A stretch of DNA of 62,239 bases, filler included, from Sarea resinae (lineage: Eukaryota): assembly GCA_026026165.1 (NCBI GenBank). It is 3 parts of 3 records of this genome, joined end to end, with 100 filler letters (N's around TTAATTAATTAA, not from the genome) between each part and the next. Parts side by side here need not be neighbours in the genome. Positions count along the whole stretch, not along the records: positions 49,911 to 62,239 come from JAPEUD010000136.1; 2 more parts are not named here. One strand, 5' to 3'. Made by a program: the position numbers and the translations under genes. This document shows positions 3,201 through 62,239 of this stretch, piece by piece. The first letter of the stretch is position 1. Each line of letters begins with the position of its first letter. The notes under the pieces are model-generated. The model was not told where the DNA came from and ran no database searches. It saw only the letters and a program-made list of their open reading frames with translations.

Positions 3201-4021
3201 CGACCCTCATTGTTCATTGATTCCTCGTCATTGCGTACCATGGCGCGCCACATTGTCTCATCCGCAACCTCTGCTGGAGAATGATTGGATTCCGGTAAGA
3301 CCTTGTCCGTTTCCGCATTGTTTGACGTAGAGTAAGTATGCTCATCTCTTCCGTCTTCTATCGCAGTGTTTGGGCGATCCAACCTGTCCAAATCCGAGGG
3401 CGCATTACTCTTCCTCGGTCTTCCTCTTCTTTTGACCGGCGAAGGAGTCTTTCCGGGAGTGTCCTTCTCCAATTGTACATCCACAGGATCAACCACAGAC
3501 TTTCTCCTCCCCCTTGACTTCGGTGCTGGAGTTCCCGTTCTCTTCGCTGGAGACGCTGACTTTCGCGGTCTTCCTCTTCGCTTTGGAGCTACCGGGGATG
3601 AGTCTAATCCTTTGAGAGGAACCGTCGTAGTCGTTGTCCGCATTTTAGGGCCCTTGGATGGGGATGTTGCATTGGCGACTCGAAGCCGGTTGATCTGTAG
3701 GGCTGGTCCTTCATTCTCTTGCTCTCGCTCAGCCTCGACCGTCACCCGAATGCGCCAAGGGCTGAGAACATTTTCGGTCTGAGCCGAAGATTTGGTAGGA
3801 GACGGTTTGAATGGGTCGAGATTGGCAGGTGGGGTATTCAGCACGAAGTCCTGGAGACGAATAGACTGATTACTGCCTGTTACGACTTCTTTCAGCGGAG
3901 ATTTTCTGATCGGAGACCTAGAGGTGGTCTTTTGAGGCGAACGAAAAGAAGGAACTTCAGATGAGTCCCCAAGAGGGTCAGGAGATGAAGGCGGGGACTC
4001 AGCGTTGGAAGACATCGCCAT
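299..4021 (-). CDS. Large low-complexity AT-hook DNA-binding protein (fungal hypothetical)
   Basis: Single long ORF; first ATG at 4021. Two AT-hook cores (KRRGRPRKS) plus SRGRRKS; mostly S/P/E-rich disordered sequence with a poly-Q/S C-terminus. Confidence 0.75.
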   Translation of the reverse strand: MAMSSNAESPPSSPDPLGDSSEVPSFRSPQKTTSRSPIRKSPLKEVVTGSNQSIRLQDFVLNTPPANLDPFKPSPTKSSAQTENVLSPWRIRVTVEAEREQENEGPALQINRLRVANATSPSKGPKMRTTTTTVPLKGLDSSPVAPKRRGRPRKSASPAKRTGTPAPKSRGRRKSVVDPVDVQLEKDTPGKTPSPVKRRGRPRKSNAPSDLDRLDRPNTAIEDGRDEHTYSTSNNAETDKVLPESNHSPAEVADETMWRAMVRNDEESMNNEGRIHESSNEAEEENDALGDLREFDSVLESEGFSMVSISSIPSAREFSSSPSVRESSIQSRPPSPDNGAPGFSEESAKSSSQPLAGKLIPSKAKRAERPVSDIFQSLALEQHDSEKHPSNESVRQTEASMLSHMGSSPPVAEHPSLLFPQRTPSMELSSPSLPPPLRQTSSKAAPAPKEMSTPKLSGVVRAGIALQGVLDTKTGLQSPLGSPIKESHSPKKEQKERLDDLFSGFGQSTRRELRAGLRLGEELARRQREAAARRESNNRGKTGGLTEEREYTGYPRLPTPDEQKLPSAPLPDVIEYPQLQSEKEAPGEVDDEDEMVWQRGSPAQLSKPQDDQNIEEEAGEAGNITACSTTSQLEAKWQREREAVSQRIAAANTSQVIVIDSSSSEEESDVGSTIEGKPADPELEDEHDIWQAEARESSEITASALPQTHDLWGTDTEIIKPRRSKIPSPWRNKNQIIYSDEPQEDEEDGRDQTDAKDERNDERAQLGTNPTEDEDSVDVDESGLFWQSTRRIREQREMRQRRQERKNEIDLSALLGLKGSNEERVVPDDSKVGSGPRREGKMSEFSAQETVQEPSKLYDVNFVSPARQIEAVEAASSAEKNTLGHHSSAIHDESSSEISFAPSLCSTPAPPFSSVAAQRQRQLKEALVEQRQEQQKLPQHQRHQDALQSRLLGRISAASGGGPASWLKRRQASPTTVPSSASPASSTTESRSESVATLATAATTRPSTSTSTSVSASASAPERKQTKQHENQSKASKAKEVKALPTSGPWLNAHYKLLDSLYQASKEPGWGQRQEQRRGSAASHPLNHREGEKQDEECIPITDPKLRALVGKRYSSYTTASSSSSNSGQAQGQAQHQGQGVQQQQQQLPQRKEYTVTLTEQHVRVVAAFLATLRRDALAERQRRAGPSSSQTRQPEPKDDCDANIDGSIDIDVAFSEKQVAKRLFSLVAGETLRAERARS

Positions 4022-4775
4022 TGCAATAGAAGCCCAACTAATGAGTGTGCTAGTCCCCAAGAGTCGCAACAACGGGCAGCTTCAAAGCCTAATCCTGCTA
4101 CCAGTGATGGAAATGGAATGAGTGAAAGAATTCAAGTTCAAGGCGGATCTGCAAGATAACCGAGACGTTTTGCACCGATCGTATTGAGGGCCAGCAAGAC
4201 GTTTGGAGGATGGTGTCTGTCCAGCAGTCGTGCAGGCTGCCTCTCTGTTTGTTGACATTCGGTGATGCTTCGCTTGAGCTGAGGCAGCGCTTAGCCTGAT
4301 TGACGAGAAAGCCTTAGCGCAAGTCGCCGTCCGGATTATCTCTCCGCCGCCGCTAATTCCAGTCAGGAAACCCTCCCGCTCGAGCGAGTCGCCACCCCCA
4401 TCAAAACATCAGCATCGATTTTGATCAGACTTGACTTATTTTTTCAGGCCTTTCTACAGCATTTCATTATAGGTAGTTGGCGTACAGTAGCATGTCCGCT
4501 ATACCTGCTGGAAATAGCACTTCAAGCATATCACTTCAAGCATCGAGAGAAAGGAGCTGTTGCTTATGCCTAGAGATTGCCATACTAGGACTTCATTGTA
4601 AGATTTTGTTCTGTCATGCTCTGTAAATCACGCGCTATGCTCAAGGAAAGGTGCATGGACTGGAAACGACCGCCATATATGAAAATGCCCGAGGAGTTGT
4701 AATCTTGTAATCCCGTAAACTCCATGGCCCTTCCAATCATCCTAGTCGTCAACCTGAATTATTCTTGTATCACAT

Positions 4776-5696: not shown

Positions 5697-7996
5697 CTTG
5701 GTGATGTTAATGTATGAGAGAGCTGATCGCACGCCGGTGGCACCGAATGCTCTCTGAGCTTTGTATAGGTTGGTTGGTAATGATATCAGCGAAGATCTGA
5801 TTAGATTCGTCGTGATTGATGTCGGTGTCGATGATAGTGGTGATGATGATTCTATGCGCGGGCTCAGCACTGGAAGAATCACTCAAAATGTGGCAATGGT
5901 GGAAGATTGACAAAATGGATCATTGCCAGGGAACGATGCAGCTCATATATACTACGTAGGATCAGAGTCAATTCGACTTCCTTCTCGAAGATCAGCATTG
6001 ATGAGAAAGCATTCATTAGTAATGCATGGATACATCCATTCAGACATGGCCTGAGGTGGTGAAGACTCGGGGTCAAGCAGTGATCTTTGGCTGGCGTCAT
6101 ACCGCGACCTCCAACCGTGTTGCGGAGTACGGCCGGGAGACGGCAGATGCTGTCAGATTGGCGTCGGATGGCGACATTTGCCAGCCACCTTATTTGCCGA
6201 GGGTAGTGGTGGTGCTGACTCAGACATCCAAAGCATGAGGTGTTCAGTAAACGAAGCTTGACTCTTCCGTTGAGTCTTCCTCCAAGCCCAGCGCTGCAGG
6301 GCAGCAGTGCCTTCACCGTGAGGCTTAGGGACATCAATGTGTATTTGATCATGTCTGATTAGTTGGTTGATAATTCCACACGATCAACCCCTCTTAGACA
6401 ACCGGCCTCAAGAGCTGACTGCCGTCTTCTGAGGAGGGATGCGAGGGAGCGGCAATGGAGCAGCTTGAGAACAGGCATGATGACTCTGTCCCATAGTTGC
6501 AAGTTCGTGTTGATAACAGGACCATCAAAGACTTGTTGTTCATATCGTAGCCAATGGAAATCAGCTGCTACATAGTACAGAGATTCCTGTAAGCTTTGCA
6601 TTGACCGTTGATTGCTGCTGCGACGATTGACTCGACGGGTTCGTCTTCGTGTCTGGCCTGATTTCCCCAACGTGTTCGTCCGTAGAACACATGGATTGCA
6701 TATATCATATGTCGCAGGAGAGAAGGATCATGGGGAGGTGTGCCAATGGAGGATGGATGGCTGGAGTGTTGACATCGGATGTGTCTGTCTTTGTCTGAGT
6801 GCGGGCGAGCGATATGGTCTCGATCTGAGAGGTACTGCAGAGTACTCGTGTACTGGTACGAAGTGATGAGTACTCGCCCCCAGATAGCAGGAGTGTCTTC
6901 TACGATGTACTGTGGTACGGGTACAGGGTACTGATAGTAGATTTCCGAATTCCCGAAAACTGCGGAGGCTCGGCCGCATGGTGAGTCTCCCCCCAGCTGT
7001 TTGACTCACGATTGACGGCGGATCCAAGGCCTTGCCCCCACTAGAGGATCGGATATCTCATCCATTGTCATCCATGGATCAGTAGCAAGTAGCACGAAGA
7101 TACCGTGAGCGCGCATGTACTGTGAGTACCGTCAGTACGCGTGCTGTACCATGAGTACTTCGTCGTACCGTGCTCACAGACTGGCTCCGTAACTCTCCTA
7201 TCGCTCCAGTCTCCGCTCTCATTAAGCGCTCCTTGCATGCCACTACTGCCACTACTGCCACTAATGCCACTACTCTCTGAAAAACATCTGGAAGAGTCGA
7301 TTTAGACGTGGATCATGACGGTGGTGGGCCTGGCGGTAGCCTGTGTGTGCCCTGTGCTTCTCCGCCTGCAGATGGATGATTACATATCATCCCATCGATA
7401 CTATCCAAAGTATCAGATCCATCCTCACCTCTAGCACTCTACCGCGTACGGCGTCCAGAGATCTTTCTCCCCTCTGGGACTACCGCGTAGATGTCTTCCC
7501 GCCTACGGGGCTCATGTTGGTCGATCCTGATCGCTAGATCACTAGAGCCCTCCTCGTTCGCCCGTCGTTCGCCCATCGTTCGTCGTCAGAATGCAATGCG
7601 ATCGGGTGTGACGTAGTGCCTGACAAACTTTCTTTGACAAATCCAACATTACCAATGGATGCATGGATGGCTGGCGAAACCTATCGCCGATATACCCGTC
7701 TTCTCACTGCTGTGTTGACCTGCCGTCGTCCAATTCGGAATGCTAATTTATTTGAGCTTTGACAAAACTGCTCTCCGCCCTGTCTCCCGAGAAGGCTGCC
7801 TCTGCCACGTCCTTCACCTCTCTTTCACCTCTCCTTCACCCCTCTCTCATCTCTCTTTCACCTCTCTTTCACCGGCCCATCTGCGTCAACATTCGTTCGG
7901 GGCAGCTTTGTGCGCCCTCAATTCACTTGCCCAATCCTCACTTCGTCCACTAGAGATCTATCATTCGACAAGACGCGGACGACGTAGTACAGCATC

Positions 7997-10900
7997 ATGT
8001 GGGGGGGTCTATCCGACGACATGTATGCCGCCCAGGCCGGACAAGAGGGTGCCGGTGTCCCTCTGCACCCCGAAGACCAGAACGGAGAGAGACCACATGA
8101 GCCGGAAGAGCGCTATGAAGGGGGCCCATACGAGGAACAAGGGACCGCCCTCGGTGCCGAGTCCACGGCCGTAGCAAGTCCCTATGAAAGTGAGAGCGTC
8201 GATGGGACGTGGGGAGAGAGAGATGCCGGTCATCCAGTCCGGCATCGAATGGCAATGGACGACTACGAGAGTCTGAGGCGAGAATTGACCAGATTGTCCA
8301 TGGAACGGACCCGCTCACAGTCGAGAGCGGACAGAGGTTCTCTTTTCCGATCTGTCACTGGTAAGAGCGCTCATCGAACCCAAAGCCGTCGTACCCGCTC
8401 GTCGAGGGCAGAAGACGAAGATTTGGAGGCCGACGAGGTTGATGGCATTGAGGAGAAAGAGCAAGAATTCCAACTGTCCCAGTTCATGCGCGAGGGCCAT
8501 TTTGAGAAGAGAACCGAGGCCGGCGAATCGACGAAGAAAGTCGGGGTGATCTTCAAGAATCTGACGGTCAAGGGTGTTGGGTCGACGACTTCATTCGTGA
8601 GAACGTTGCCGGACGCCATTCTCGGTACCTTTGGGCCCGATCTATACAAGATCATATGCAAACTTGTTCCATCCTTGCGCTTCGGAAGCCATGGTCGGAC
8701 GCGGGATCTCATTCATGATTTCACTGGCGTCGTTCGCGACGGAGAGATGATGCTAGTTCTGGGGAGGCCGGGCTCAGGCTGTTCGACGTTTCTCAAGGCC
8801 ATCGCAAATGACGTCGACTCTTTCGCCGGCGTGACGGGCGATGTCTCATACGGAGGCATTTCAGCTGATCAACAGAGGAGAAAGTTTGTACGTATCAGTG
8901 CCCTTTGCTCTCAACCTTGATCGGAGTGGCACTGGAGAACTAACAACCTCACAGCGTGGTGAAGTCAACTACAATCCAGGTGAGATGAAATGACCATTAC
9001 TTTTGAGGACTGTGGCTGATATCCATGACAGAGGACGATCAGCACTTTCCCAGGCTGAATGTCTGGCAGACGCTGAAGTTTGCTTTACTCAACAAGACAA
9101 AAAAGAAGTCAACTGGAGACGTTCCGATCATTGTTGATGCACTGCTGAAGATCTTTGGCATTAGCCATACCAAATACACTCTTGTCGGTAATGAGTACGT
9201 GCGCGGAGTGTCTGGCGGTGAGAGGAAACGAGTATCTATTGCTGAGACTTTGGCCACCAAATCGACCGTGGTATGCTGGGACAATTCAACCAGAGGTCTG
9301 GATGCCAGCACGGCACTGGACTACGCCAATTCCTTGCGTATCATGACTGATATCAGCAATCGCACCACCCTCGTCACACTGTATCAAGCAGGAGAGGGCA
9401 TCTACGAAGTGATGGACAAGGTCCTCGTCATTGATGCGGGTAGGATGATCTTCCAGGGGCCGGCTGAGGATGCGAAGCAGTATTTTATTGATCTTGGCTT
9501 CCGTTGCCCTGATAGACAGTAAGCAACATCCTGGAGACGCTTTGCAGAACAATCACTGACCGCCGACAACAGAACGACAGCCGACTTTCTGACCTCGATC
9601 ACTGATCCAAACGAACGCCAATTTCGCGAGGGCTTTGAGGACAAGGCTCCTAAGACTCCCGAGGAGTTGGAGAAAGTATTCAAGCAAAGCCAAAACTACC
9701 AAAAGGTCCTTGAAGACGTCAAGACGTATGAGAGGCAGGTGCAGGAAAGCGATCTGGCCGATGCCAAACAGTTCACCGATGCTGTGCGAGAAGGTAAAAG
9801 CAAGACGGTCCGGAACAGCTCCAGCTACACCGTTAGCTACTTTCGCCAAGTGATTGCCTGTACCCAGCGTGAGTTCTGGCTTATCTGGGGTGACAAGACG
9901 ACTTTATACACGAAAGCATTTATCGTCATCGCGAACGGTCTAATCGTTGGTTCTCTGTTCTACGGCCAGCCACTTAGCACGGAAGGAGCGTTTACTCGTG
10001 GAGGCACTCTGTTCTTCTCGATTCTCTTCCTTGGTTGGCTCCAATTGACGGAATTGAACAAGGCTGTTTCCGGACGAGCGATCATTGCACGTCACAAGGA
10101 GTATGCCTTCTACCGTCCATCTGCTGTCAGCATCGCCAGAGTGGTCACGGATTTTCCCGTGATTCTCGCTCAAGTCATCCCTTTCTCGATTATCATGTAC
10201 TTTATGACGAACCTTGACGTGGACGTTTCCAAGTTCTGGATCTATATGCTCTTCATCTACATAACGACAATGTGTATTACAGCTCTTTACCGGATGTTTG
10301 CAGGTGAGTATGAAGGTTCATAATTCTCGAACAATGCTAATCGAATTCCTAGCACTCTCACCAACCATCGATGACGCCGTTCGGTTTTCCGGTATCGCTC
10401 TTAATCTTCTGATCATCTACACGGGGTATGCTATTCCAAAACCACAGCTTCTGGACAAGTATATCTGGTTCGGCTGGATGTTCTACATCAATCCCATCGC
10501 GTACGCTTTCGAGGCCACTTTGACAAATGAGTTCCATGATCGTGTCATGGACTGCTCGAAAATGGAGCTTTTACCCCAAGGACCAGGCGCGAGTCCGCAG
10601 TATCAAGCCTGCTCCCTGAACACTCTTTCCTCACCTCTGGGCAGTACCCAAGTCGGTGGTGAATACTACTTTCACCGGGAATTCAACTACTCTAGAGAAC
10701 ATCTGTGGCGCAACTTTGGAGTCGTCATTGCTTGGACCGTTCTTTACGTCCTTGTGACCGCTATTACTTCAGAGCTTTTTTCATTCGCCAAAAGCGGGGG
10801 TGGAGCACTCATTTTCAAGAAGAGCAAAAAGGCGAAGCAAGTCATGGAAAGCCCTCCATCGGACGAAGAGAAGGGTGGTGATGCCGGGGGCAGTAATGGA

Positions 10901-26009: not shown

Positions 26010-27640
<1,631 letters not shown>

Positions 27641-49761: not shown

Positions 49762-49796
<35 letters not shown>

Positions 49797-49810
49797 ACGG
49801 TCCCTGTTCC

Positions 49811-49910
49811 NNNNNNNNNNNNNNNNNNNNNNNNNNNNNNNNNNNNNNNNNNNNTTAATTAATTAANNNNNNNNNNNNNNNNNNNNNNNNNNNNNNNNNN
49901 NNNNNNNNNN
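49811..49910. other. Assembly gap with artificial TTAATTAATTAA linker, preceded by a 32-nt poly-G (49763-49794)
   Basis: 100-nt N block with linker; it truncates the 3' LTR. Confidence 0.97.
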
Positions 49911-50037
49911 CTACAGGAGCAGAAAGGAAACGATCGTGTCCCACAACAACAAAACCCTGCTTCGCTTATGATGCTGACTAATGACTTGCTAACTTCCTGT
50001 CACCTGACTATCAGTTGTCCCATGTCACTTCCTGACA
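49911..50037 (-). repeat. 3' LTR (partial, truncated by gap)
   Basis: 127 nt identical to 58291-58417; begins TGTCAGG on the minus strand just after the PPT. Confidence 0.95.
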
Positions 50038-50041
50038 ACTA

Positions 50042-50056
50042 TCCCTCTTTCTTTTC
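50042..50056 (-). other. Polypurine tract
   Basis: GAAAAGAAAGAGGGA on the minus strand, 4 nt before the 3' LTR. Confidence 0.9.
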
Positions 50057-50058
50057 GT

Positions 50059-51372
50059 TCACAAATTGGGAACGGAATTGTCCTCCTCCTTCGGAATCGA
50101 AAGTCGCTGTTCACCGTAAGCTAGGACTTCGCTGAAAGACATTCCCGCTTCTTGAAATTGTGTGTTCATCGTAGACAGATAGTCGGAGAGTCGCTGATTA
50201 GCATAGTCATGGTCTGGCTGCTCCAACGACCAAACAACCTTGGCTAGTAGTCCTGAGAGAAGCTGGCGATAGTGGATTTCCCTGTTGTGTGCAAACCCCA
50301 AACTCTCAATGAGACGTCCGACTCCATGCTCATTGTCATTTCCCACTGATGTTCCAGTTGCATCCAGCCCCGATGACATTCCCAATCGATTCTTGATGGT
50401 ACGAATGTCATACTTGGCGCTTTCGTTGGGAACTTCATTCTTGGTCACTGCAATTTGAGGTCGAGTAGAGCGAGTTGTCTTCTTTACTGGAGTTGTGAAC
50501 AAGTGTGGTCCCATATCGAAAGATAACTGAGGCAAAGTGGCTGTTCCCACAGGGTTCGGACTGCTGAATTCGTCGAAATTGCGCTTGCGCCTAACTGATG
50601 GGGTAACATTGGTTGACACGATAGGCGTTGGTGGGTGTGAAATGCTAAGATCGATGACTTTGTTCTTTTCCAGTGATGGATAACCCTCTGGGTCCATAGG
50701 ATCCAAGTCCAGCGGATCTTGATGTTGGTTTTTCACCTTGTCCTTTAAATCACGTCGTGTGTAAGCCTTACGGCGACCGGTCGAATTGAAGAGTCCTAGG
50801 AGTATGGCCCAACTGGTGAAGACTGGAGGAACTTTCACGAGATCGCGTGTGCGTGGGTCCTTGATCGCGTCGAAAAGCCACTTCAATTCTTGATCCTCTG
50901 TGATTCCCTGCAGTGGTGGAATGAAATGAATCTTCTCTCGATGAATAGCCGATCCATAGTGGATTGGGTAAGTTGGTTGTTTGCAATTAGCGATGTTTCG
51001 CCCTCTCGTCGTCACTGGCGCCGGTCGACGAACGATTCTTCCGTCTGAAGCGATCCATCCGAAGACTGCACGCTTGGGAGTAGGATCATCGGCAACTTCT
51101 CCAATTATGACTCCGTCTGTGATTGCGCGCTTATCGCTTCCACCGTCAACTCCGTAACTCATGTCTGAATCGCCGTAGGGAGGTTCGTCTGGTTCATTCA
51201 TATTTTGTTGTGTTGCTTGCTGCTCGGGTGTCATAGTATTGAGGATTTGGTCGATGATATTCAGGTCTTCCTCAGGGAATTCGTATGGTTGAATGAATGG
51301 ATCTTGATGTTGGCTACCATCGTCCATAATAGTGAAGGAAGAATCGCTAGGATCTGGTGGATCCCTTGCCAT
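50059..51372 (-). CDS. Retrotransposon ORF3 (437 aa, unknown function, env position)
   Basis: Intact sense-strand ORF between pol and the PPT, strong start context GCC-ATG-G; acidic N-terminus, RRKR motif, no signal peptide or TM anchor evident. Confidence 0.8.
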   Translation of the reverse strand: MARDPPDPSDSSFTIMDDGSQHQDPFIQPYEFPEEDLNIIDQILNTMTPEQQATQQNMNEPDEPPYGDSDMSYGVDGGSDKRAITDGVIIGEVADDPTPKRAVFGWIASDGRIVRRPAPVTTRGRNIANCKQPTYPIHYGSAIHREKIHFIPPLQGITEDQELKWLFDAIKDPRTRDLVKVPPVFTSWAILLGLFNSTGRRKAYTRRDLKDKVKNQHQDPLDLDPMDPEGYPSLEKNKVIDLSISHPPTPIVSTNVTPSVRRKRNFDEFSSPNPVGTATLPQLSFDMGPHLFTTPVKKTTRSTRPQIAVTKNEVPNESAKYDIRTIKNRLGMSSGLDATGTSVGNDNEHGVGRLIESLGFAHNREIHYRQLLSGLLAKVVWSLEQPDHDYANQRLSDYLSTMNTQFQEAGMSFSEVLAYGEQRLSIPKEEDNSVPNL

Positions 51373-51660
51373 GGCCTGAGTGCTTTGAACGAGGCGTCAT
51401 GTCGGAAGGATAGGCCGAAAGACGTCCGAAAAGACGTAAAAGGATGCGAAAGTTTGCAAAAGTTGAGTTTGGGTTTGTCTGATTATTTATATTGGTGGGA
51501 TCTGGATCTTTAAGCGAACATCGAGCTGAGAAGCGATAGAGTGAATGATGCCAAGGCGTCCGCATAGAAGCCCGATTCGGACACCCTGACGCCGAATGTG
51601 AAGTGAACGATGGTGAATAAAATGCAAGTGCGAGTATGAATGCTGTTCGAAATTCACTGC

Positions 51661-54600
51661 CTAACTCTCTGGCAATGATGATTCTGGTGTAGTGAGATCA
51701 ATTGCACGATGTCCCCAGTAGTCCCATGAGGATTCGTCTGCTGTATCGCCTGGGAAGTCGACATATTGGTTCCACCACTCTGGATCAGGTAATGGGTCTG
51801 GATCTTGTCGATACTCTGCAAGATCGTGTCCCTGCCCGAGTAAAATATCGTCCTCTAGTTGTTGTTCAGTTTGCCTTTGTCTCACGCGTTGTCTGACTTG
51901 CTGATTTGTATCCGCGACTGTCTGCCAGTCCGGACCAACTGCTCGCCGAGCATCTCTCTGGACGAAGACCTTCAAGTCGTTCATATGGTATCTACCTTTG
52001 ACTTGCCCATTGTGTAAATCTGATATCACAGCTGATTTTTCGTGGTCGCTAATCCGAGTGACTCGATAAGGTCCTTCCCATCGAGGCTCAAGTTTGTGAC
52101 TTCTTTGATTATCCTGTGCCAATCGACGCAACAGGACCAAGTCTCCCGTTTTTGGAGCAATGTAAGCTGACTTCTTACTTTGCTGGATCAATTTCTCTTG
52201 GTCAGAGAGTCGCATATAGAACTTTCGTGATCGAATTTCATCAATTTTGGTCAATCGAGCGGCCAGTTGATCTTCTGGGACCTTCACATTCGGGTCCACT
52301 CCTGCTGACACCATTGCACTCGTTCGAAGTTCGTCTTCGAATAGATTATTCTCACTCCCAGCATAGTCGGGTTGAAATCCCAATAAGAGTTGAGCTGGTG
52401 TCCAATCCTTGAACGTTACTGCTCTGGTATTCGCCGCGTCAACGACTGATTTCACGAATAAATGCCAATTGAAGATATTGGCTGGTTGTGTTTGGAGACA
52501 TTTCCTGAGTCCTGACAGGACGACTTGAACATATCGTTCAGCCAATCCCACTGAACTTGGGTGAGAAATAGGTGCGAGAATGTGACTGATTCCCATGAGT
52601 TGTAATCGTTGCGGGAAGACTCCATCAGTGAAGTGCTTTCCTCGGTCCGAATAGACAGCTCGAGGCCATCCAAAGTGCTCGATGATTCGCTGTTCCACGA
52701 AGTCGAGACTATCTATGGATCTTGCGGTTTGCAACGGTTGGGCAAATAGGTATCGGCTGAAGTAATCAACTGCAATGATGATGTATCTACTTCGGTCGCT
52801 TGATAGAGGAGAAATTGGACCGATATAGTCAATTCCTATCATGTCCATTGGTTGCAATGATGAAATCGGCAGTATGTCGGTTGATGGACGCAACGGTCCT
52901 ACCATCTGGCAATTCACGCAGCTGCGGCAGTATTCACGAATATCATGATACCTTGTAGGCCACCAATATCTTCCTGCTGTCTTTCTCACTGCAATCTTCT
53001 CGGCAAAGTGGCCATGCATGTCATGCATTGCGAATAAGACGTCATTCACCTCGTCTGCAACAATACACCGGCTGATCGATTGATCGCGTTCCTTATAGCC
53101 AAGTTGAGGGGTGTCTCCTTCGATCATAATGAGACTTGCCGCCAGCTTTCGTGCTGCCTTTTTGAATGACGGACTTAATTCCCCTCGAAATTCGATATTC
53201 CCTGTTAATTTATAGTAAAGTGCGTTTCGATAGCCTTCGTCATGTAACCATTTTCCCCAAGTTCGCTCGTCTTCATCGGTAAGTTGTGGATTGACAGTCA
53301 TAAGTATCGATGGATCTCTCGCATCTTGAGTGTCAGCCGGATAGACTTCAGCCATATAGGATGGAAAAGAGAATTCCTCGTGTTCCTGCAATCCTTGGTA
53401 TGAAGGGCTGCCCTCAAGTCTAGACATCACATCGGCTACCACGTTTTCCTTTCCAGGAATGTGAACTGTTTGATAGTCGTACTCTGCGAGACGGAGTTGC
53501 CACCGTGCCATTCGGCCGCGTGTATCGTCAGATTGCAGATTCGTTACTAGTGCATTATGGTCGGTGTAAAGAAGGATCTCGATGCCAGTTCCTTGAACTA
53601 ACCAGCGACATTCCTCTAGACACAGGAGCACTGCCAAACCTTCCCGCTCTGTGGTTTGGTAATTCCGCTGCGCGGGTGCCAATTGATAGGACATAAACAT
53701 GACAATGGCCATGTCGTGTCGGGTCTCCTTGGTCAACCTTGTGCCGTTAGGGTGACTTGGGAGTTGGAACAAAACACCTCCCACGCAATGTTTTGATGCA
53801 TCCGTCGCTAAGTGATATTGAATTTTAGGATTCCCTCCTGACCTAACTGTGGTCAAGATCGACTCGATGACTGCTCGAAATGCCTGTTCATGGACATCTT
53901 GCCACTCGAATCCAATCACCTTTTTGGTTTTCCGCTTCTTACCGTTCACTATTGTCATTGAATGCTCTGTCTGGATTGCTGTTTTAAGGATGATAGCGTA
54001 GTCCGCGCGGCACTTGATGAATTCCTTAAAGAATGGCAGCAAGTACAGGAATCGCTCCAGTGCTTCTGCATCCTGAGGTGAGGGATAATTACGGAACATC
54101 GCCATTCGGTCCAATGATGGACGTAGTCCTTCTTGAGTGCGGGTATGACCAAGGATATCTATCGTGGTCGTGAACAGTCGGGTCTTTTCTGGGTTAAGTG
54201 TCAATTTCGCCCAGGCAAGTCGTGGGAAATAATGCTGATGGAACCACGACTGCAGCGAAGCCACACTCTGCGCTCCTCCCATATCGTCGTCCACAAAGTG
54301 ATCGAATTCACAATCTGATTGACTGTCAGACAATGCTGGTTCGGAGTTCGGACTTGGGATTGGCCCAGTTGCTATGTCCTTCAATCGGGAGTATGTCGCA
54401 GGTCCTCCTGTGAGTCCCTGACCCATCCGCAAATAACAGTATTGACCGTCAAACCCATGAAAAGCGGACTTATATGCGTGTGACGGGTTCATCTTAACGG
54501 CCCAGTATCCGTTTGCGGCATCTGCTTGAAAGAAGACTTTTAGATGCGACTTGCTCAATTTCAATAAGACAGGCTCAATTCGCCGCATAGGGTATGAGGA

Positions 54601-55395
54601 CTTAATTGTTGCCGCGTTTATTGGACAAAAGATGTGAACCATTCGTAACTTTCCCGACTTCTTGCGTGGGAATTTCGTCTTAGCCGCCCATGGTGACTCG
54701 CACTGTGTGATCACTCCAGATTCAAGTAACGCTGGGAATGCGTCTTTCATATATTGGACTTCTTCTGGAGTGTATAACGGAATCTTTGCTGTCTTAGGGA
54801 CCGTGTCTCTGTATGTCGGAATTCGATGGGTAATCAAATCCGTAGCGGGCATGTCACGTATATTCGTGACGAATAAATCGCTCCAGGTAGTGATCAACAA
54901 CTCTGCTTGATTGCGATCTTCTCTGGTACGCAATGCATCTCCCAACAATTGTGGGAACTCCGTCAACAACCCTTCTGCCTCTGTCGATATTGATGTGGCT
55001 AATGGTCTGCGGTATTCGCATGGTCGTCTTATTGTGGGAAATCCTGTCGTTCCATTGCCAAATTCCTCTTCTTCCTCGTGTATGACAGCGTTCGCACCTA
55101 GGGCGGAATCCTTTTTCCGTAGCTTTGGTTCTGTCGCTCGGATTGGATGAATATGGTCAGTCTCTCCGACTCTGACAAGTTCACGACTCTTGTTAGCGGG
55201 ATCAGGAGGCTCCTTGATTCTCTTCTGTCGTTGAATGAGTCGCAATTGCTGACGTTTGGTTCGACGATCCAATGCCAACAATTCCACTCCCGCAACGTCA
55301 ACCACCTCCTGACCGCCACCGGATGCCGCACTTGCTTCCTGGTGGTCCGACTCACTTGTAAAGACCAGGTCCTCTACAAGCGTCGGTCTTTTAAA
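51661..55395 (-). CDS. pol: Pol (reverse transcriptase, RNase H, integrase), reached by -1 frameshift
   Basis: RT QADAANGYW, MGQGLTGGPATY, FVDD; RH TDAS, EREGLA, YTDH, NVVADVMSR; IN HDMHGH..CRSCVNC, IDYIGP, SDRG, GLAER, GPY module. The frame is open back to the slippery site at 55389-55395. Confidence 0.95.
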   Translation of the reverse strand, partial: FKRPTLVEDLVFTSESDHQEASAASGGGQEVVDVAGVELLALDRRTKRQQLRLIQRQKRIKEPPDPANKSRELVRVGETDHIHPIRATEPKLRKKDSALGANAVIHEEEEEFGNGTTGFPTIRRPCEYRRPLATSISTEAEGLLTEFPQLLGDALRTREDRNQAELLITTWSDLFVTNIRDMPATDLITHRIPTYRDTVPKTAKIPLYTPEEVQYMKDAFPALLESGVITQCESPWAAKTKFPRKKSGKLRMVHIFCPINAATIKSSYPMRRIEPVLLKLSKSHLKVFFQADAANGYWAVKMNPSHAYKSAFHGFDGQYCYLRMGQGLTGGPATYSRLKDIATGPIPSPNSEPALSDSQSDCEFDHFVDDDMGGAQSVASLQSWFHQHYFPRLAWAKLTLNPEKTRLFTTTIDILGHTRTQEGLRPSLDRMAMFRNYPSPQDAEALERFLYLLPFFKEFIKCRADYAIILKTAIQTEHSMTIVNGKKRKTKKVIGFEWQDVHEQAFRAVIESILTTVRSGGNPKIQYHLATDASKHCVGGVLFQLPSHPNGTRLTKETRHDMAIVMFMSYQLAPAQRNYQTTEREGLAVLLCLEECRWLVQGTGIEILLYTDHNALVTNLQSDDTRGRMARWQLRLAEYDYQTVHIPGKENVVADVMSRLEGSPSYQGLQEHEEFSFPSYMAEVYPADTQDARDPSILMTVNPQLTDEDERTWGKWLHDEGYRNALYYKLTGNIEFRGELSPSFKKAARKLAASLIMIEGDTPQLGYKERDQSISRCIVADEVNDVLFAMHDMHGHFAEKIAVRKTAGRYWWPTRYHDIREYCRSCVNCQMVGPLRPSTDILPISSLQPMDMIGIDYIGPISPLSSDRSRYIIIAVDYFSRYLFAQPLQTARSIDSLDFVEQRIIEHFGWPRAVYSDRGKHFTDGVFPQRLQLMGISHILAPISHPSSVGLAERYVQVVLSGLRKCLQTQPANIFNWHLFVKSVVDAANTRAVTFKDWTPAQLLLGFQPDYAGSENNLFEDELRTSAMVSAGVDPNVKVPEDQLAARLTKIDEIRSRKFYMRLSDQEKLIQQSKKSAYIAPKTGDLVLLRRLAQDNQRSHKLEPRWEGPYRVTRISDHEKSAVISDLHNGQVKGRYHMNDLKVFVQRDARRAVGPDWQTVADTNQQVRQRVRQRQTEQQLEDDILLGQGHDLAEYRQDPDPLPDPEWWNQYVDFPGDTADESSWDYWGHRAIDLTTPESSLPES
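55347..55395 (-). promoter_or_regulatory. Programmed -1 ribosomal frameshift signal (U UUA AAA plus stem-loop)
   Basis: Heptamer in gag-frame phase at 55395-55389; the -1 frame is continuous with pol; downstream CCGAC-GCTTGTAGAGGAC/GTCTTTACAAGT-GA-GTCGG hairpin. Confidence 0.8.
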
Positions 55396-57551
55396 TTCTC
55401 TCCGTGGGACTCCACAACTTCGTCGTCGTAGTCAACTTGATCTTCTTCGAGTGCTCGCATGTACTCTTCTGCCATGATCTCTTCTTGGGCTGCAAAATCT
55501 GCGAGTGTCTCGTCATCAAGAGGCGAATCTCCAAGTGGAGCGTCCGGTGCGATAACCACCAATGGTGAGTCGTCGCCACGTTCGGTCTTGGTAGGAACGA
55601 GAGTGTGAGGGCGATTGTCTAAATCTCTGATGGTGTACGTTCCTGTCTCGTAATACCCTCTTGCTTTCACTGCCCTCATCCATTGTCTGCCAAGAATGAG
55701 CGTGTAAGTTGCATTACTCGGAACCACAAACGCGTCAATTGTTGTGTCAACGTCCGCAATCCTGATACGGAAAGTCACATAACTGTGGACTCGATCCGTC
55801 TCACCTCGGGCGGTGCGAATCACAAGACTGTGCTCGGGGATCTCTGGGAGTCCCAATTTGTCAACGACGCGTTTAGGGATCAAGTTGACACTTGCTCCTC
55901 CATCGATCATGATCCATTGCAAATTGAACACTTCAGGTCGGTTCGCATGAGGTTTGACGAGACCAGTCGTGTAGAAGATACTAGCTGGTGGCATGCGAGT
56001 ATGTTTGCCCTTCACATCGGTCCAATGAACAAGCCCCTTCTTATCATTAGATTGCTGTGGAGTGGCCTTTGACTTTGGGATATCAACTGCTCCAACGTCG
56101 ACCGTTGATTGCTTCGAATCTAGCCTCAAGCATCTTCCCAACCGAATTCTGGCTGCCGCCGAGTCATTGAAGTATTGCATTGGTGTCAATCGTATTTCAC
56201 CTTCTCGCAACCAAGTTTCAATGCTGAAAGGTGCATCACCACGCATTCCCACGATTCCTCTAGCTGGGCGAGGTGGGTTGGCACCGGCATTCGCTCCACG
56301 AGGCTGAGGTGGACGACGACCTTGCTGTTTCTGGGCCTTCGTCACTCGGTCGTCTGGCTCACGTGACTCATCGCGTCCCCGTTTCTCTGCCGCATCCACG
56401 TCTTCAACTTGGTTGACTTCATGTTCCATGTCGTAGGCATCGACAAAGTTCACATTCTGAATGACCATGTCACGATCTCCCGAGTTCCAGATCTCCTGTT
56501 CCACTTCAACTTGATTGCCTTGTGCAATTCTTGCAGCTCGCGACTCCGCAACGCGATTCATTACAGCTCTGCGCTCCGCATCTGACAGAGATGTAGTTGA
56601 CGTGCAGTTCGTCTGGTAATGACCCTCGCCACCACAGCGATAACATATAATAGTCACACCACTTCCTGCTGTCTGCCTCTGCTGACGAGGAGGATTCGTG
56701 TTCGCATTATGGTTATTGCCTCCGCGAGGTGCTGGAACACCATTCGGATGTCCTGCGTTCTGCCTGGCAGGTTGGCCATTGCCATTACCATTGACGTTCC
56801 CGTTGCCGTTTCCATTCTGAAGCGATAGATTCATCAACCGTTCCATAACATTGGCGAGTCCGAGTTGATTCTTCTGGTTCTCTTCGTCACGCTTCCTCTG
56901 CTGTTCCCTTTCCTGTTCCATCGATTGACGTTGTATTTCCATGTAACGAGCAAACTCTCGGTCTCGTGGACCCATGCGCTGAAGTTGCATTCCAGTTTGA
57001 GGTCCTTTGCTTGACTTGGAGTCCTCTCCAACACTTGATGCAATGCTTTGGGCCAAACCGATGATGTCGTCCAGAGTGGGATTCAGCATCTGGTTCTTCT
57101 GTCCCGCTACTGTGTAACGAAGCATATCGCTCGCAATTCCCTCAATGAATTTCTTAATGAGGAGATTGTCAATTGTGTTACCTGATGCCACGAGTCGCCT
57201 CTGTATATCGCGAGTCCAATATACGTAGTCGTCCATGGCCTGAGTTCCTTGCTTGAGCAAAGTAAGGTCATTGAATGCCTCATCGGCATAGTTAGTCTCA
57301 GTTGTCTCTTTAAACCTACGCTTCAGCGCTTCGGTCATTTCGGTCCAACTTTCACGAGTCGGTTTGGAAAGCGACTTGACAAATTGATAGGCCTCGCCAT
57401 CCGTATTTGTGATCAGTGCAATGAGTCGTGCCTTTTCACGTCTATCAGGTGCGTAACGATCTTGCTGTGCCTCAAACGCCAGTTCGACAGTATCGATAAA
57501 CATTTCAACATCCTCGCCGCGTTCCCCCGAGAAGGTGGGAATTTTGAACAT
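55374..57551 (-). CDS. gag: Gag-protease polyprotein (capsid-like region, CCHC knuckle, aspartic protease)
   Basis: IPTFSGERGEDVEMFI capsid-like start; CYRCGGEGHYQTNC at 56604-56645; protease MIDGGASVNLI..LILGRQW. First ATG at 57551, frame open upstream to 57986. Confidence 0.92.
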   Translation of the reverse strand: MFKIPTFSGERGEDVEMFIDTVELAFEAQQDRYAPDRREKARLIALITNTDGEAYQFVKSLSKPTRESWTEMTEALKRRFKETTETNYADEAFNDLTLLKQGTQAMDDYVYWTRDIQRRLVASGNTIDNLLIKKFIEGIASDMLRYTVAGQKNQMLNPTLDDIIGLAQSIASSVGEDSKSSKGPQTGMQLQRMGPRDREFARYMEIQRQSMEQEREQQRKRDEENQKNQLGLANVMERLMNLSLQNGNGNGNVNGNGNGQPARQNAGHPNGVPAPRGGNNHNANTNPPRQQRQTAGSGVTIICYRCGGEGHYQTNCTSTTSLSDAERRAVMNRVAESRAARIAQGNQVEVEQEIWNSGDRDMVIQNVNFVDAYDMEHEVNQVEDVDAAEKRGRDESREPDDRVTKAQKQQGRRPPQPRGANAGANPPRPARGIVGMRGDAPFSIETWLREGEIRLTPMQYFNDSAAARIRLGRCLRLDSKQSTVDVGAVDIPKSKATPQQSNDKKGLVHWTDVKGKHTRMPPASIFYTTGLVKPHANRPEVFNLQWIMIDGGASVNLIPKRVVDKLGLPEIPEHSLVIRTARGETDRVHSYVTFRIRIADVDTTIDAFVVPSNATYTLILGRQWMRAVKARGYYETGTYTIRDLDNRPHTLVPTKTERGDDSPLVVIAPDAPLGDSPLDDETLADFAAQEEIMAEEYMRALEEDQVDYDDEVVESHGENLKDRRL

Positions 57552-58194
57552 CGTATCTTCTGGATCGAGAGGGATATCCCTCTTTCTTTTCGATGATGAT
57601 TGTGGGTTTGATGTTGCTTGAGTTGACTCTATCGATTGTATGTATGACTCGTAAGTCTGTAACTCTCTCCCCCGGACGGGACTGCTTGAATTCGATGGTC
57701 GTGGGATTTTTGATGGAGAAGTCGACTTTGACGATGACAGATTTCTGATTTCCCGATTAAGGTCTCTCTGTTCCAGAGTATCTCCGTAATCTTCTCCAGA
57801 TTCCGCACTGATACTGTGATTCCGGGATGGTCCTCCCGATGAGTTTGAGTGAGATGCCACAATGATGGATTCCCGACTCAAGTCGGGAATTGATGATCTC
57901 GTAACTTGGATTTCGTGCTGAGATGAACAGTGAATGATGGAGATGACAAGTGAAAGGTGAAGGTAAAAAGTGAGAAATGAAATTCGCTATTCGTGATCTG
58001 ACTTCTGTAAACCGTTACTTTGATGATTTTCGATCCCCACTGCTACTGTTGACTAGTGACTTGATGCAATTGATGGATCCTCACAACACAACTTCAACGC
58101 GTCCGAGCCAAGACGTGACGTCCGCCCGCAGGCCGGATGCACTCTTGCTGGGGCCGTTCTCAGTTCGTGATGAGAGGAATCCCCTCAATGCAAA

Positions 58195-58213
58195 ATTCCG
58201 GGTCGAGGCACCA
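58195..58213 (-). other. Primer-binding site complementary to a tRNA 3' end
   Basis: TGGTGCCTCGACCCGGAAT, 1 nt after the LTR-terminal CA; complement reads ATTCCGGGTCGAGGCA-CCA. tRNA identity not determined. Confidence 0.85.
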
Positions 58214-58214
58214 A

Positions 58215-58417
58215 TGTGAGGTTCGGTCACACACGAAAAAGTGAGCTAACTTGATTGATTGCTGATGCCTGTAATTGCATGAGGTGCTAGCTACAGGAGC
58301 AGAAAGGAAACGATCGTGTCCCACAACAACAAAACCCTGCTTCGCTTATGATGCTGACTAATGACTTGCTAACTTCCTGTCACCTGACTATCAGTTGTCC
58401 CATGTCACTTCCTGACA
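58215..58417 (-). repeat. 5' LTR (203 bp)
   Basis: TG...CA ends with imperfect terminal inverted repeat (TGTCAGG...CCTCACA), bounded by the PBS. Confidence 0.92.
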
Positions 58418-58846
58418 GCGGCATCGAAATGGCATCCCATGATGTGGCTGACGGGCGCCACCCTCTCTCAACGACCGTCTTAGGACGAATCGCCGATGGA
58501 GACGAACAAACAGGGCACAAAAAGCAAGATCGCAACGTCTAATGGCCCACCTCGTGCGTCGCCAACAGGCAACAGGCCAACTGTAGCTGTTCCGAACTTG
58601 CCTTTTGGCCCTTTTAGGAGATCCATGGATGGCTTGTGGGCCCTGCTTGCGACAGTGAACCCTGACCGACGCAGGGTCTTCATTGCGATGCTTCCACCAA
58701 CTACTACTACTACCACTAATACCACCACTACTGCGTAATACTCCTCCTTCTCTTCCTCCCTCTTCCCTCCTTCCCCCATCTATGCAGCAACTGCGTGAAG
58801 GATATTGTTGGTCTCTGGATGGAGACTGCGGCCGATTTGGTACAAG

Positions 58847-61110
58847 ATGAATGATCCCGGGCTCGATGGGCCAGTCCATCACAGTGCGAACGATGTAGAG
58901 GAAAACGACGCTGGGAAGGCAGAAGAAGAAGAAGAGCACGACTATCTGGAGCCGAGGTAAGTCACCCAGAAACGTTGATATCCGGTACCTGGCTGATGTC
59001 TGTCTGTAGTCGCTGGTGGTTTGCGTCGACGGCATTTCCTCTTATTGCTGGGACTTTTGGTCCTATGGCCAGCGCGTTCAATTTGTGCGCCTTGATCGGA
59101 CACTGGACAGAGATCGTACCGCCGAATGGGGTCCTAGATCAGGCTTCAAGTGTGCCAGATCCAAAATGGTGAGAAGGACGCCTTCGTTCTCCTGGGTTCC
59201 TCTGGGTTGCTGGCTTACATCCGTCATATAGGCTTATCGGCGTCAATGCGGTATCGCTTGTTCTCGCCGTCTTTGCCAATTTTGCTCTTCTCATGAACAT
59301 GGCTCGTCGTCTTCCCTTCGCGTTGGCACAGACTATCACCATCGTCGGATGGTATCTAGCGTCGATCATTCTCATTGGCCTGCTGGCCGCGGCCGAGGCT
59401 GATCTGAAGCTGCAGTCTCCGCCAAACCACGCACACGCGCAAGCATTCTACTATGCAATCATTGCAGCAGCGCTATACTTCCTCGTGGCTAGTCTGATGG
59501 TTGCCACTGTATTCGGGGCATACACAGGCTACGTTTCTAGGGAGTTTTCGCTCACTCTTAGCCAGCGGTCTCTTATGCTGCAAACAATCAGCTTCATGGT
59601 GTACCTTCTTTCCGGCGCTGCTGTATTTGCACATGTTGAGGATTGGATATACCTTGATGGAGTCTACTGGGCCGATTTTACCCTCTTAACGGTCGGCATT
59701 GGAGATTTTGCTCCCGCTACTCATCTTGGCAGGGGCTTGCTCTTCCCATATGCTATTGGTGGCGTCCTGATCCTCGGTTTGGTTATCGGCTCTATCCGCT
59801 CACTAATCCTTGAAAAGGGGAAGCGGAAGATGGGCGCTCGGATGATTGAGAAACATCGCAGACGGGCTCTCCGACAAATGAGCCAAGGCAAGGGCAACTC
59901 ATCGAGCAATACTAGCAGAGAACCAGTGAATTTTCTAGCAGACGGGCTTGAAGAAAAGGAAAAGCGGCGACGAGAGTTTAATCTCATGCGTCAGGTTCAA
60001 GCTAAAGGCAGCAAGCGGCGCAAATGGATGGCTCTATTGACATCCACCACCGCTGCGGGCATACTCTGGTTCATCGGCGCCGTCGTATTCTGGAAGTCGG
60101 AACAGAATCACGGTTGGAGCTACTTCCAAGCTCTCTACTTCGCGTACACTTCTCTTCTCACTATTGGATACGGTGACTACTACCCCGAAAGCAACGCCGG
60201 AAAACCCTTTTTGGTCTTCTGGTCCCTCCTTGCCGTCCCAACCCTCACGATCCTCATCAGCAACATGGGCGACACCATCGTCAAGTCTATTGCAGACATA
60301 ACTCTGTGGGTCGGCTCCTTCACTGTCCTACCGGGCGAAGGTGGCTTTTCTGCCGCGATCAAGACTACCGCCGCCCAAGCCACACGCGGCAAGCTTTTCA
60401 GTGGGACCCACCACATGGACGAACCCCCCGGTTTTATCGCCGAGAAGGAAGATAGTCCGAAACAAACAATGCACACGGGCGACGTCGAGAACCTTGCGGG
60501 CGAGATTGAGGAGGAAGAGCTCAGCGACGCGGAAGCGGCCGGCAATATCGGCGACAAGATGGCCCAAGACAGGCATTTTTACCACTACCTTCTCGTACGT
60601 GAGATAGTCAACGTCATGAAACATGTCAATTCTTCCCCGCCGCGTGAGTACACGTACGACGAATGGGCCTGGTTCCTGAAGCTACTGGGCGAGGACGAGG
60701 CGTCCCCCGATCGTCATTCCAGGCCGAGCGAAAAGGGCGAATTGCATCCTGACGGCGAAGGCCACGAGCAGGACCTGCGACACGCGGAGGAGGCCGATGG
60801 CGGCGGAGTGGTGAGTCAGTGGAGCTGGCTCGATCATAAATCCCCGCTCATGGGCACAAAGGAGGAAGCGGAGTGGGTTCTGGAGAGGCTGGCGCTTACG
60901 CTTGAAGAAGAGCTGAGGGAACAGCGCGAGGAGAAGATAAGGCGGGACAAGGGTGAGGATCCGCGGCGACCTCGAGCGACTGGGGCTGAGAGCTCTGGGT
61001 ATAGCACGGGCGATATCAGCATCTCAAGCGGGAGCGCAAAGCTCGGCAGTTTCAGTGCTAGCAAGAGAGGTCTAAAGCCCAAGAATGCCAAGAAGAGTGC
61101 GCGCTCTTGA
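58847..61110 (+). CDS. TOK1: TOK-type two-pore-domain outward-rectifier potassium channel, 3 exons
   Basis: MNDPGLD..EPS|RWWFASTAFPLIAGTFGP; pore loops LTVGIGD and LTIGYGD; multiple TM helices. Confidence 0.9.
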
Positions 61111-62239
61111 GACGGCATTTGAGATCATCATCGCCATCATCATCACCTTCCTCTCCATTTTCAATCAAGCCCTCTACGACGTTGACTTTCATACCGTTTC
61201 TCATCGGGATCGAACTCTTGAGGATGCCTTTACTTTGGACTCTGCAGTGGCTTTGGTCACGGTGCATACATACCACCACTTCCTCTTCATCCTACATTTG
61301 TGTCCATCTCTCCTTCTCAGCTACATCCTCCTTTACTCTCTAACAGTATCTCCATGGCATCTCGCACACGACATACGTGCTCACGATTTATATCAGCCCC
61401 TTTTCTTTTTCTTTCTCTCCTCACCGTCTCTTTTCCTCTCCGGCTGGTTACGAGCTTTGTGTCATATTTCAGACAAGTGCCGGATGGAAACAAGACGAAT
61501 GGGGGGAATGCATCCACGGACCAGTGACGATTGATATGGCGAGAGGAATACTGCACGGGAATGGGTCCGGTCTAGTTTGTTTTGGTTTGGTTTGGTTTGA
61601 GTCGGCTGGGTTGGACGGACAGGATAGGATGGGTTGGGGGCGGACGGGACAGGATAGGATAGGAAGGAGAGCAACCTTAAGTCTGTATCATAGCAAGGAA
61701 AGTAGAGGACATGTCGTCCATCTAGACTGCTAGCTACTCCGCTTAGACTTGGGAGTCGGATCAATACTGTTCTGCACAGCCACATGCTGAATAGCTATAC
61801 CAGCTATTATTCAGAGGAAGAAAAAAAAAACCGGGGAAATCGATCCAGGCTGAATGTCGCCGTGCACGTGTGTGTCTATGCTTCTCAAGGGATGTCTGAT
61901 AATAGGTAAGGTAAGCTACCTACTAGTAGGTAAGGTAGGCCAAACCAGTTTCCTTGCTTGTGCCTTGGAAATGTAAGGACTAATATAGAGGGTCTGGTAA
62001 ATCTAGTAGGCAAACCTGTTCCTCAGGTACCTTAAGTTATAAACACTAGGTACCTACTGTATCTTATAAAAAAAACCGAGAAAAAAAACTGTACTATAAC
62101 TTAGCGTATAATCTACTCCAGAGTACGGTACCTAGCCAAGATAAGGTGAGGTAGGTTTTACCTTATTTATATGCCTACCAAGGTATATAGCAAGCAGTGC
62201 TCCTCACACTCCCCCCTTTTCCCTCTTCAAGTATATGGC

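Follow-up and report, generated by a model that had tools for sequence, protein, structure and literature searches.

A conserved third open reading frame in the env position of a Ty3/gypsy retrotransposon from Sarea resinae

Fungal Metaviridae are given at most 2 genes, which are gag and pol, in one review table (PMC10224137). What, then, is a third, intact open reading frame (ORF) doing in such an element: is it a gene at all, does it belong to the element, and what might its product do? We address these questions for a fungal Ty3/gypsy retrotransposon on the minus strand of a 62,239-nt stretch of DNA from Sarea resinae (assembly GCA_026026165.1). This whole stretch is called the window, and all coordinates except those within related loci refer to it. 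The frame in question, ORF3, encodes 437 amino acids (aa) from ATG to stop at 50059..51372 (−), in sense orientation relative to gag and pol. We describe it as an orphan and judge that it is, on balance, probably a maintained, element-borne accessory gene.

Maintenance and origin of ORF3

ORF3 lies inside the element, on its sense strand, between pol and the polypurine tract and 3′ long terminal repeat (LTR), where an initial annotation of this DNA had placed a 437-aa frame in the env position. A spacer of 288 nt, close to the 290 nt given there, separates the pol stop TAG (51663-51661) from the ORF3 ATG at 51372, whose context reads cactcagGCC-ATG-G and so retains both the GCC-ATG-G start and the preceding CTCAG of that description. 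From stop to stop the frame spans 445 codons (50059..51396). At its other end, after the TGA (50061-50059) come 2 nt, then GAAAAGAAAGAGGGATAG and, from 50037, the LTR with its first letters TGTCAGG; the stop had been said to abut the polypurine tract, and indeed only these 2 nt part it from the tract GAAAAGAAAGAGGGATAGT at 50038..50056 (−), which itself adjoins the 3′ LTR. The longest antisense frames across ORF3 reach 82 and 114 codons.

Such a frame might be open by chance, or be decaying, and have no product. That no RNA or protein evidence was found for ORF3 and that its structure is poorly predicted would both suit this explanation, but three observations run against it. First, when the 1,623-nt pol-to-LTR interval was shuffled 20,000 times, no stop-free run reached 437 codons (maximum 280, mean 98). 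Second, the only full-length homologue, a 470-aa 'hypothetical protein M1819_007329' (P0003) from a Sarea resinae metagenome-assembled genome (MAG), is likewise intact. It is 63% identical to ORF3 and collinear with it from the same start (MA..DPDPSDSSF) to the same end; besides a few single-residue gaps, the alignment gaps are insertions in the Sarea protein, and no part of ORF3 is skipped. Third, conservation comes in blocks, with fractional identities of 0.62 (aa 1-50), 0.36 (51-75), 0.76 (76-200), 0.53 (201-318) and 0.83 (319-437).

Neutral substitution was also simulated on the ORF3 DNA: by the time two descendants had diverged to 65% amino acid identity, they had gathered an average of 8.6 stops, and in none of 2,000 runs were both still open. 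Because the neutral simulations never kept both frames open, the comparison indicates that ORF3 is a real protein-coding gene under coding constraint, selectively maintained, and makes a chance or decaying frame extremely improbable.

No recognisable relatives place this gene in a known family. Pfam yielded no family at E up to 0.1 or up to 10 for ORF3, its 445-aa stop-to-stop form or the Sarea protein, and NCBIfam yielded no match for ORF3; the best E in a PDB sequence profile search was 0.61, and the ESM Atlas returned a best feature score of 0.76 with a template modelling score (TM) of 0.25 or less. A word-indexed search of 5.8 billion clusters recovered ORF3 itself and P0003 alone among 5,265 candidates and nothing among 5,605 longer candidates, while exhaustive phmmer over 1.84 billion representatives found nothing beyond the cluster of ORF3 itself. 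Pattern scans of metagenome, prokaryote-genome and viral contigs gave 596, 166 and 97 pattern matches, respectively, with no relative among them. These searches indicate that ORF3 belongs to no described family, accessory or env, as had been supposed, and is new as a protein family. A separate candidate origin, duplication of the element's own gag, was rejected by hhalign (E 0.34).

The relatives of the element itself were sought through pol. The closest database pol proteins are 44-48% identical, and the named ones (Venturia, Coleophoma, Aspergillus, Penicillium) 39-44%; the same search did not return the window's own pol and so cannot show Sarea to be without a sister pol. A pol profile served to fetch 78 metagenome loci, and the relatives proposed as a check on ORF3 were to that extent obtained, but tblastn of ORF3 and the Sarea protein against these loci gave a best E of 0.081, which is not significant, and no ORF3 relative is encoded among them. 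The pol profile matched nothing in a scan of viral contigs.

DNA after pol is present in seven related loci (L002, L003, L004, L006, L007, L008 and L010). In four of the seven (L002, L003, L004 and L006) a purine run lies 76-81 nt after the pol frame, the plain two-gene layout; in L004 and L006 this run directly joins the TG-starting, LTR-like TGTGCTGT, in L002 one T intervenes (TTGCTGAG), and in L003 CG stands where TG is expected. The layout after pol in L007 and L008 is not readable as either type. L010, whose pol is ~38% identical to that of the window element, has intact gag and pol followed by an unrelated ORF of ~1,069 aa (7285-10491 of that locus) that ends near a purine run and TGTGG. 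In the pol tree the window element falls in a clade with ORF3-less elements (support 100), and L010 lies outside it with P0058 and P0063 (support 98), on a long branch that makes its placement less secure.

Because the nearest pol relatives with DNA at this site run from pol directly into the polypurine tract, these layouts indicate that ORF3 is a derived, lineage-restricted acquisition and not an ancestral env. Within this group, a third ORF seems to have arrived on more than one occasion. A single ancestral 'cargo slot' common to the window element and L010 was considered and is rejected by the pol tree, and kinship between ORF3 and the third ORF of L010 is rejected by hhalign (E 0.95). As to the L010 frame in its own right, it has no Pfam or NCBIfam match; the Atlas leans weakly toward PhyH-type dioxygenases (0.82, below the bar and a lead only), and an H-x-D motif is present.

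If ORF3 was acquired, it may be no more than a passenger: a lineage-specific host gene with its own promoter, captured by the element or its family and taking no part in transposition, with the Sarea protein as the host orthologue. This is the main rival explanation, and much would fit it. The Sarea homologue stands single on an 88-kb contig, which is unusual for a young multi-copy element in a short-read MAG; neither Sarea nor any other source yielded a pol closer than 48% identity; and the closest relatives are without any third ORF. The distance of the TATA box described below is one commonly seen in ordinary genes; the non-sister L010 bears other cargo at this place, which suggests a capture-tolerant site; and transduced additional ORFs, in the account given in PMC7264820, occur in one or few copies.

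Composition, however, speaks for a long stay. The share of A, the GC content and the GC content at third codon positions (GC3) of ORF3 are 0.296, 0.486 and 0.472, against 0.297, 0.492 and 0.469 for gag and 0.297, 0.479 and 0.457 for pol. In the 22 further frames of the window that stay stop-free for at least 250 codons, some of which are overlapping, non-coding frames, A never exceeds 0.277 and GC never falls below 0.492. The match of ORF3 with gag and pol, and its position beyond the range of these 22 frames, argue against recent host capture and suggest that ORF3 has long been resident in the element. Moreover, a host gene should have orthologues in Pezizomycotina, but only ORF3's own cluster appeared among the 1.84 billion representatives; ORF3 exactly fills the space from the spacer to the polypurine tract; and the absence of the window's own pol from the pol search leaves a sister pol in Sarea not shown to be lacking. 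Taken with these points, we regard a passenger gene as unlikely, if still the most serious competitor to an accessory gene of the element.

Predicted product and expression

The env position of ORF3 invites the reading that it is a degenerate or unconventional env, or a cell-to-cell transfer protein. Its RRKR conforms to R-X-K/R-R and resembles a furin or Kex2 site, and there are three N-x-S/T sites. Against this, a simple hydropathy scan found no signal peptide and no membrane segment: the first 30 aa average −1.09, and the highest 19-residue Kyte-Doolittle mean is 1.38, where the usual threshold for a membrane segment is ~1.6. The N-terminus is acidic and hydrophilic, the protein holds a single Cys, and no env family matched (Pfam up to E 10). 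The lack of signal peptide, membrane anchor and Cys pattern noticed at the outset is thereby borne out. Because ORF3 has no family match, signal peptide or membrane segment, these features indicate that it is not an env glycoprotein, in agreement with the initial annotation, and an unconventional env or transfer protein is highly improbable.

What the sequence does contain is an ordered series of conserved and variable parts. The N-terminus (aa 1-80; 51133..51372, −) has a net charge of −18, confirming its acidity, and carries P-Y-E-F-P-E followed by EDLNIIDQIL, a conserved and predicted amphipathic helix at aa 34-45. The central block (aa 76-200; 50773..51147, −) is mildly basic and 76% identical to the Sarea homologue. 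The RRKR, found as described at aa 261-264 (50581..50592, −), sits in a conserved island, NVTPS[VL]RRKRNFD[ED]F, inside an otherwise variable linker, and is a candidate nuclear localisation signal. The C-terminal block (aa 319-437; 50062..50418, −) is the most conserved, at 83-84% identity, with four to five predicted helices.

Structure prediction adds little to this picture. With AlphaFold2 (AF2) on a two-sequence alignment, whole ORF3 reached a mean predicted local distance difference test (pLDDT) score of 34, with helices at aa 350-424, which agrees with the helical C-terminus proposed earlier; the C-terminal domain alone reached a mean of 54.9, its helices scoring 66-74. The central block, which had been called a compact domain, is conserved, but its pLDDT stays under 50 and lends its compactness and fold no support. 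In a Foldseek search of the PDB with the C-terminal model, none of the 103 rows had an E of 0.001 or below, from models too weak for a negative conclusion, so that the structural check suggested for ORF3 yielded predicted C-terminal helices but low pLDDT and no PDB match. Taken together, the sequence features are more in keeping with a regulator or adaptor that is soluble and nuclear than with a structural or membrane protein, and the product would probably be soluble and largely disordered.

How might such a gene be expressed? The spacer between pol and ORF3 (51373..51660, −) is C/T-rich and contains three upstream ATGs (51565, 51521 and 51400), none in the ORF3 frame. Within it, 119 nt upstream of the ORF3 ATG, lies CCAATATAAATA (51484..51495, −), a CCAAT box overlapping TATAAATA and a candidate internal promoter. 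On the 8,507-nt sense strand of the element, TATAAATA occurs once, TATA[AT]A twice and CAATATA[AT]A once. In L010, the sole sense-strand TATA[AT]A of the 10.8-kb contig stands in the same CAATATA[AT]A context (CAATATATA), 125 nt upstream of the third ORF; apart from the TATA motif, aligning the two pol-ORF3 spacers revealed no convincing homology.

Splicing from the leader, the route implied when CTCAG was named as a possible acceptor, fares less well. The leader (57400-58214) and the end of pol (51600-51800) have no GTRNGY donor, and CTRAY branch sites are absent from the 150 nt that precede the CAG at 51376. An intron of 6 kb, moreover, would greatly exceed what is usual in filamentous ascomycetes. 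Given a TATA box in the spacer, an internal promoter is the better reading. Because the spacer holds the CCAAT/TATAAATA motif and canonical splice signals were not found, we favour an internal promoter, and that ORF3 has one of its own is quite possible, if just short of probable.

A different use of the same region would make ORF3 a C-terminal extension of Pol, an integrase-ORF3 fusion formed by stop-codon readthrough or once a short intron is removed. In its favour, ORF3 is in the reading frame of pol, the ATG has a CAG 4 nt before it, and the integrase is without a chromodomain, so a targeting module could come this way. Yet three in-frame stops separate pol from ORF3, the searches for a GTRNGY donor in 51600-51800 and for CTRAY before the CAG came back empty, the Sarea protein is annotated from the same Met, and a shared frame is a one-in-three chance. 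We consider such a fusion very improbable.

Under the internal-promoter reading, the CCAAT/TATAAATA motif of the 288-nt spacer would be the promoter of ORF3 itself and would give a short mRNA ending in the 3′ LTR, 3′-coterminal with the genomic RNA; expression would resemble use of a foamy-virus internal promoter rather than env-type splicing. The product, soluble and largely disordered, with its acidic N-terminus, mildly basic conserved centre, conserved RRKR island and conserved helical C-terminus, would enter the nucleus and might act for the element, as regulator or adaptor, in its transcription, its escape from silencing or its integration. That ORF3 is a nuclear regulator of the element is a tentative proposal, and in our view rather unlikely as it stands. 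Further still, the element could be a 'complex' fungal retrotransposon, in which a nuclear factor made from an internal promoter activates the LTR or blocks silencing (quelling, heterochromatin or methylation linked to repeat-induced point mutation, RIP), with the junction from pol to polypurine tract acting as a recurrent landing site for promoter-equipped cargo, of which L010 would carry another. We think this broader scheme quite improbable.

The element and its surroundings

The host of ORF3 is a Ty3/gypsy (Metaviridae) LTR retrotransposon of a fungus, on the minus strand, structurally complete apart from a cut 3′ LTR. By Pfam its domains run in the Ty3/gypsy order: gag with CCHC, aspartic protease, then reverse transcriptase, RNase H and integrase. 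The 5′ LTR (58215..58417, −; 203 nt, TGTCAG...CTCACA) is a direct repeat with 49911-50037, its inner boundary being placed by the succession of ..CACA, a T and a site starting with TGG. Only the first 127 nt of the 3′ LTR are present (49911..50037, −), beginning TGTCAGG at 50037 and cut by the contig end, and over these the two LTRs are 100% identical (49911-50037 versus 58291-58417). The element is apparently young and competent. In the U3 part of the LTR (58330-58417, −), TTAGTCA, ATAGTCA and GTGACAGGAAGT motifs are repeated; we take these to resemble AP-1/Yap-type basic leucine zipper (bZIP) sites.

Next to the 5′ LTR, 1 nt past it with one T between, is the putative primer-binding site TGGTGCCTCGACCCGGAA (58196..58213, −), beginning TGGTGCC.., whose complement ends in ..CCA as tRNA 3′ ends do. 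The motif TCACATT(G/T)GTGCCT at this site is common to the window element and L010. No cognate tRNA was identified for it, the window holding no tRNA gene for comparison.

The gag-protease frame (55374..57986, −) spans 870 codons from stop to stop, with its first ATG at 57551 and Pfam matches to Retrotrans_gag (3.9e-06), zf-CCHC (1.5e-04) and gag-asp_proteas (2.5e-07). It is open for 145 codons upstream of that ATG (57552-57986), and in L010 gag begins with an ATG well upstream of the motif homologous to that of the window gag; gag in this copy may therefore start at a non-AUG codon or may no longer have its start codon. The 17-nt polypurine tract recurs, letter for letter (GAAAAGAAAGAGGGATA), within the gag frame at 57575..57591 (−), 24 nt upstream of the first gag ATG. 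The tract has two exact matches in the window, and two matches occurred in 0 of 100 shuffles; the internal copy may be a second plus-strand priming site, internal polypurine tracts being known from Ty1 and lentiviruses.

The pol frame (51661..55431, −; 1256 codons) encodes reverse transcriptase, RNase H and integrase, with Pfam matches to RVT_1 (1.7e-11), RT_RNaseH (8.2e-22), Integrase_H2C2 (1.9e-12) and rve (2.6e-08). It overlaps gag by 58 nt in the −1 frame, and in the overlap is the heptamer T TTA AAA (55389..55395, −). Slip heptamers for −1 frameshifting follow the rule X XXY YYZ, and by this rule the heptamer, in a fitting frame, would be the −1 ribosomal frameshift site into pol. The 1,256-aa pol frame has no match, at E up to 0.1, to a chromodomain, the integrase C-terminal feature of chromoviruses. 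With TpA/ApT of 0.41-0.53 and (CpA+TpG)/(ApC+GpT) of 1.23-1.25, the element is without a RIP signature by the thresholds we take as usual.

The window is made up of three contigs joined by N44-TTAATTAATTAA-N44 linkers at 27078-27177 and 49811-49910, and the element occupies the third (49911-62239; 12,329 b; JAPEUD010000136.1), whose end at 49911 is what truncates the 3′ LTR. Because the linkers join separate contigs, features on either side of one are not genome neighbours, and the sequence below 49811, across the artificial linker at 49811..49910, is not contiguous with the element. On the element's own contig, a two-pore potassium channel gene (59173-61107, +; Ion_trans_2, 2.8e-27) is the upstream neighbour, ~750 nt from the 5′ LTR. 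Just before the linker, beside the end of the second contig, a C/G homopolymer run of ~30 nt (49768-49797) is probably an assembly or sequencing artefact. On the first contig, an open frame of 1,260 codons (302-4081, −) has an A-rich sense strand (A 0.275, AT skew 0.19) and no Pfam family at E up to 0.001.

Standing of the reading and parallels elsewhere

The full proposal is that ORF3 is a real, maintained gene of a young Ty3/gypsy element, acquired in a restricted lineage, expressed from an internal promoter and acting in the nucleus. As a whole it falls a little below an even chance in our judgement, and several points weigh against it. The family has two known members, of which the Sarea homologue is single copy on its 88-kb contig, and the element is present as one copy in the window, the only place where copies were counted. 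No RNA evidence of any kind was found for ORF3. A host-gene origin with recent capture keeps some weight, because no pol more than 48% identical was returned. The poor structure predictions mean that nothing structural would favour a regulator. The TATA argument was made post hoc, from two elements that are not sisters in the pol tree, and the shared motif may be a generic fungal core promoter. If transcription starts early, the out-of-frame ATG at 51400 would lie in the 5′ untranslated region and could burden translation. Finally, the full competence of this copy is not certain, because the first 145 open codons of gag are without an ATG.

As a kind of gene, ORF3 is an additional ORF of an LTR retrotransposon, which is a known class; it is the protein family that is new. 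The closest parallel in position is the plant aORF-3S of Athila, Bagy2 and other Ty3/gypsy elements, which PMC7264820 describes at the same place and in the same orientation and which, like ORF3, is lineage-restricted. In that description the plant ORFs are called env-like for their membrane segments, and some are expressed from spliced RNA, whereas our scans of ORF3 showed no membrane segment, signal peptide or splice signals. ORF3 differs further in being fungal and in having no sequence relative beyond one fungal protein.

Among fungi, the nearest case, and the only extra gene described in the papers that we found, is brtn, an additional gene of Boty-like Ty3/gypsy elements of Botrytis and Sclerotinia, cited as antisense in PMC8365987 and PMC7264820. 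As presented there, it too is borne by a fungal Ty3/gypsy element, as a gene added between pol and the 3′ LTR and hence with a promoter of its own, but it is antisense where ORF3 is on the gag-pol strand. The two are set apart here by description rather than by sequence comparison; brtn is missing from the current B05.10 annotation according to PMC8365987, and so is perhaps outside the protein databases searched. No fungal Ty3/gypsy element with a sense third ORF came up in our literature searches, a negative on which the supplementary figure of 'other additional ORFs' in Botrytis in PMC8365987 may bear.

Outside fungi and plants, the ORF3s of bdelloid rotifer elements (Rodriguez, Kenefick and Arkhipova 2017, PMC5408684) are presented as family-specific, independently acquired, missing from basal branches and non-env, the same pattern as that of the window element set beside L010 and the ORF3-less relatives. 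The rotifer proteins named in that paper are GDSL lipases, DEDDy exonucleases and membrane or coiled-coil proteins, typically from spliced messages, whereas ORF3 has no recognisable domain.

Complex retroviruses offer a parallel of another sort, with 3′ accessory regulators and, in foamy viruses, an internal promoter (PMC7828637); ORF3 too is a 3′ gene with a possible internal promoter. Its product shares with these regulators an acidic end and a basic motif. Foamy-virus Tas is one such regulator. ORF3 has no Pfam, PDB-sequence or Foldseek match to the retroviral trans-activators Tat, Tax and Tas, the Foldseek result coming from low-confidence models, and it resides in a fungus; the papers that we found describe no such genes from fungi. 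With the env of errantiviruses and retroviruses, ORF3 has in common its position after pol, but all the defining env features tested are absent from it.

If our account is right, a sense, conserved, non-env third gene with a likely promoter of its own would mean that fungal retrotransposons, too, recruit accessory genes, like plant and rotifer elements and complex retroviruses. It adds an orphan protein family of two members, with no detectable relatives among ~15 billion predicted proteins. At 437 aa with three conserved blocks, ORF3 offers a compact, testable case for what such genes do, and if it does encode a nuclear factor that activates the LTR or blocks silencing, no accessory regulator gene would have been known before it from a fungal Ty3/gypsy element.

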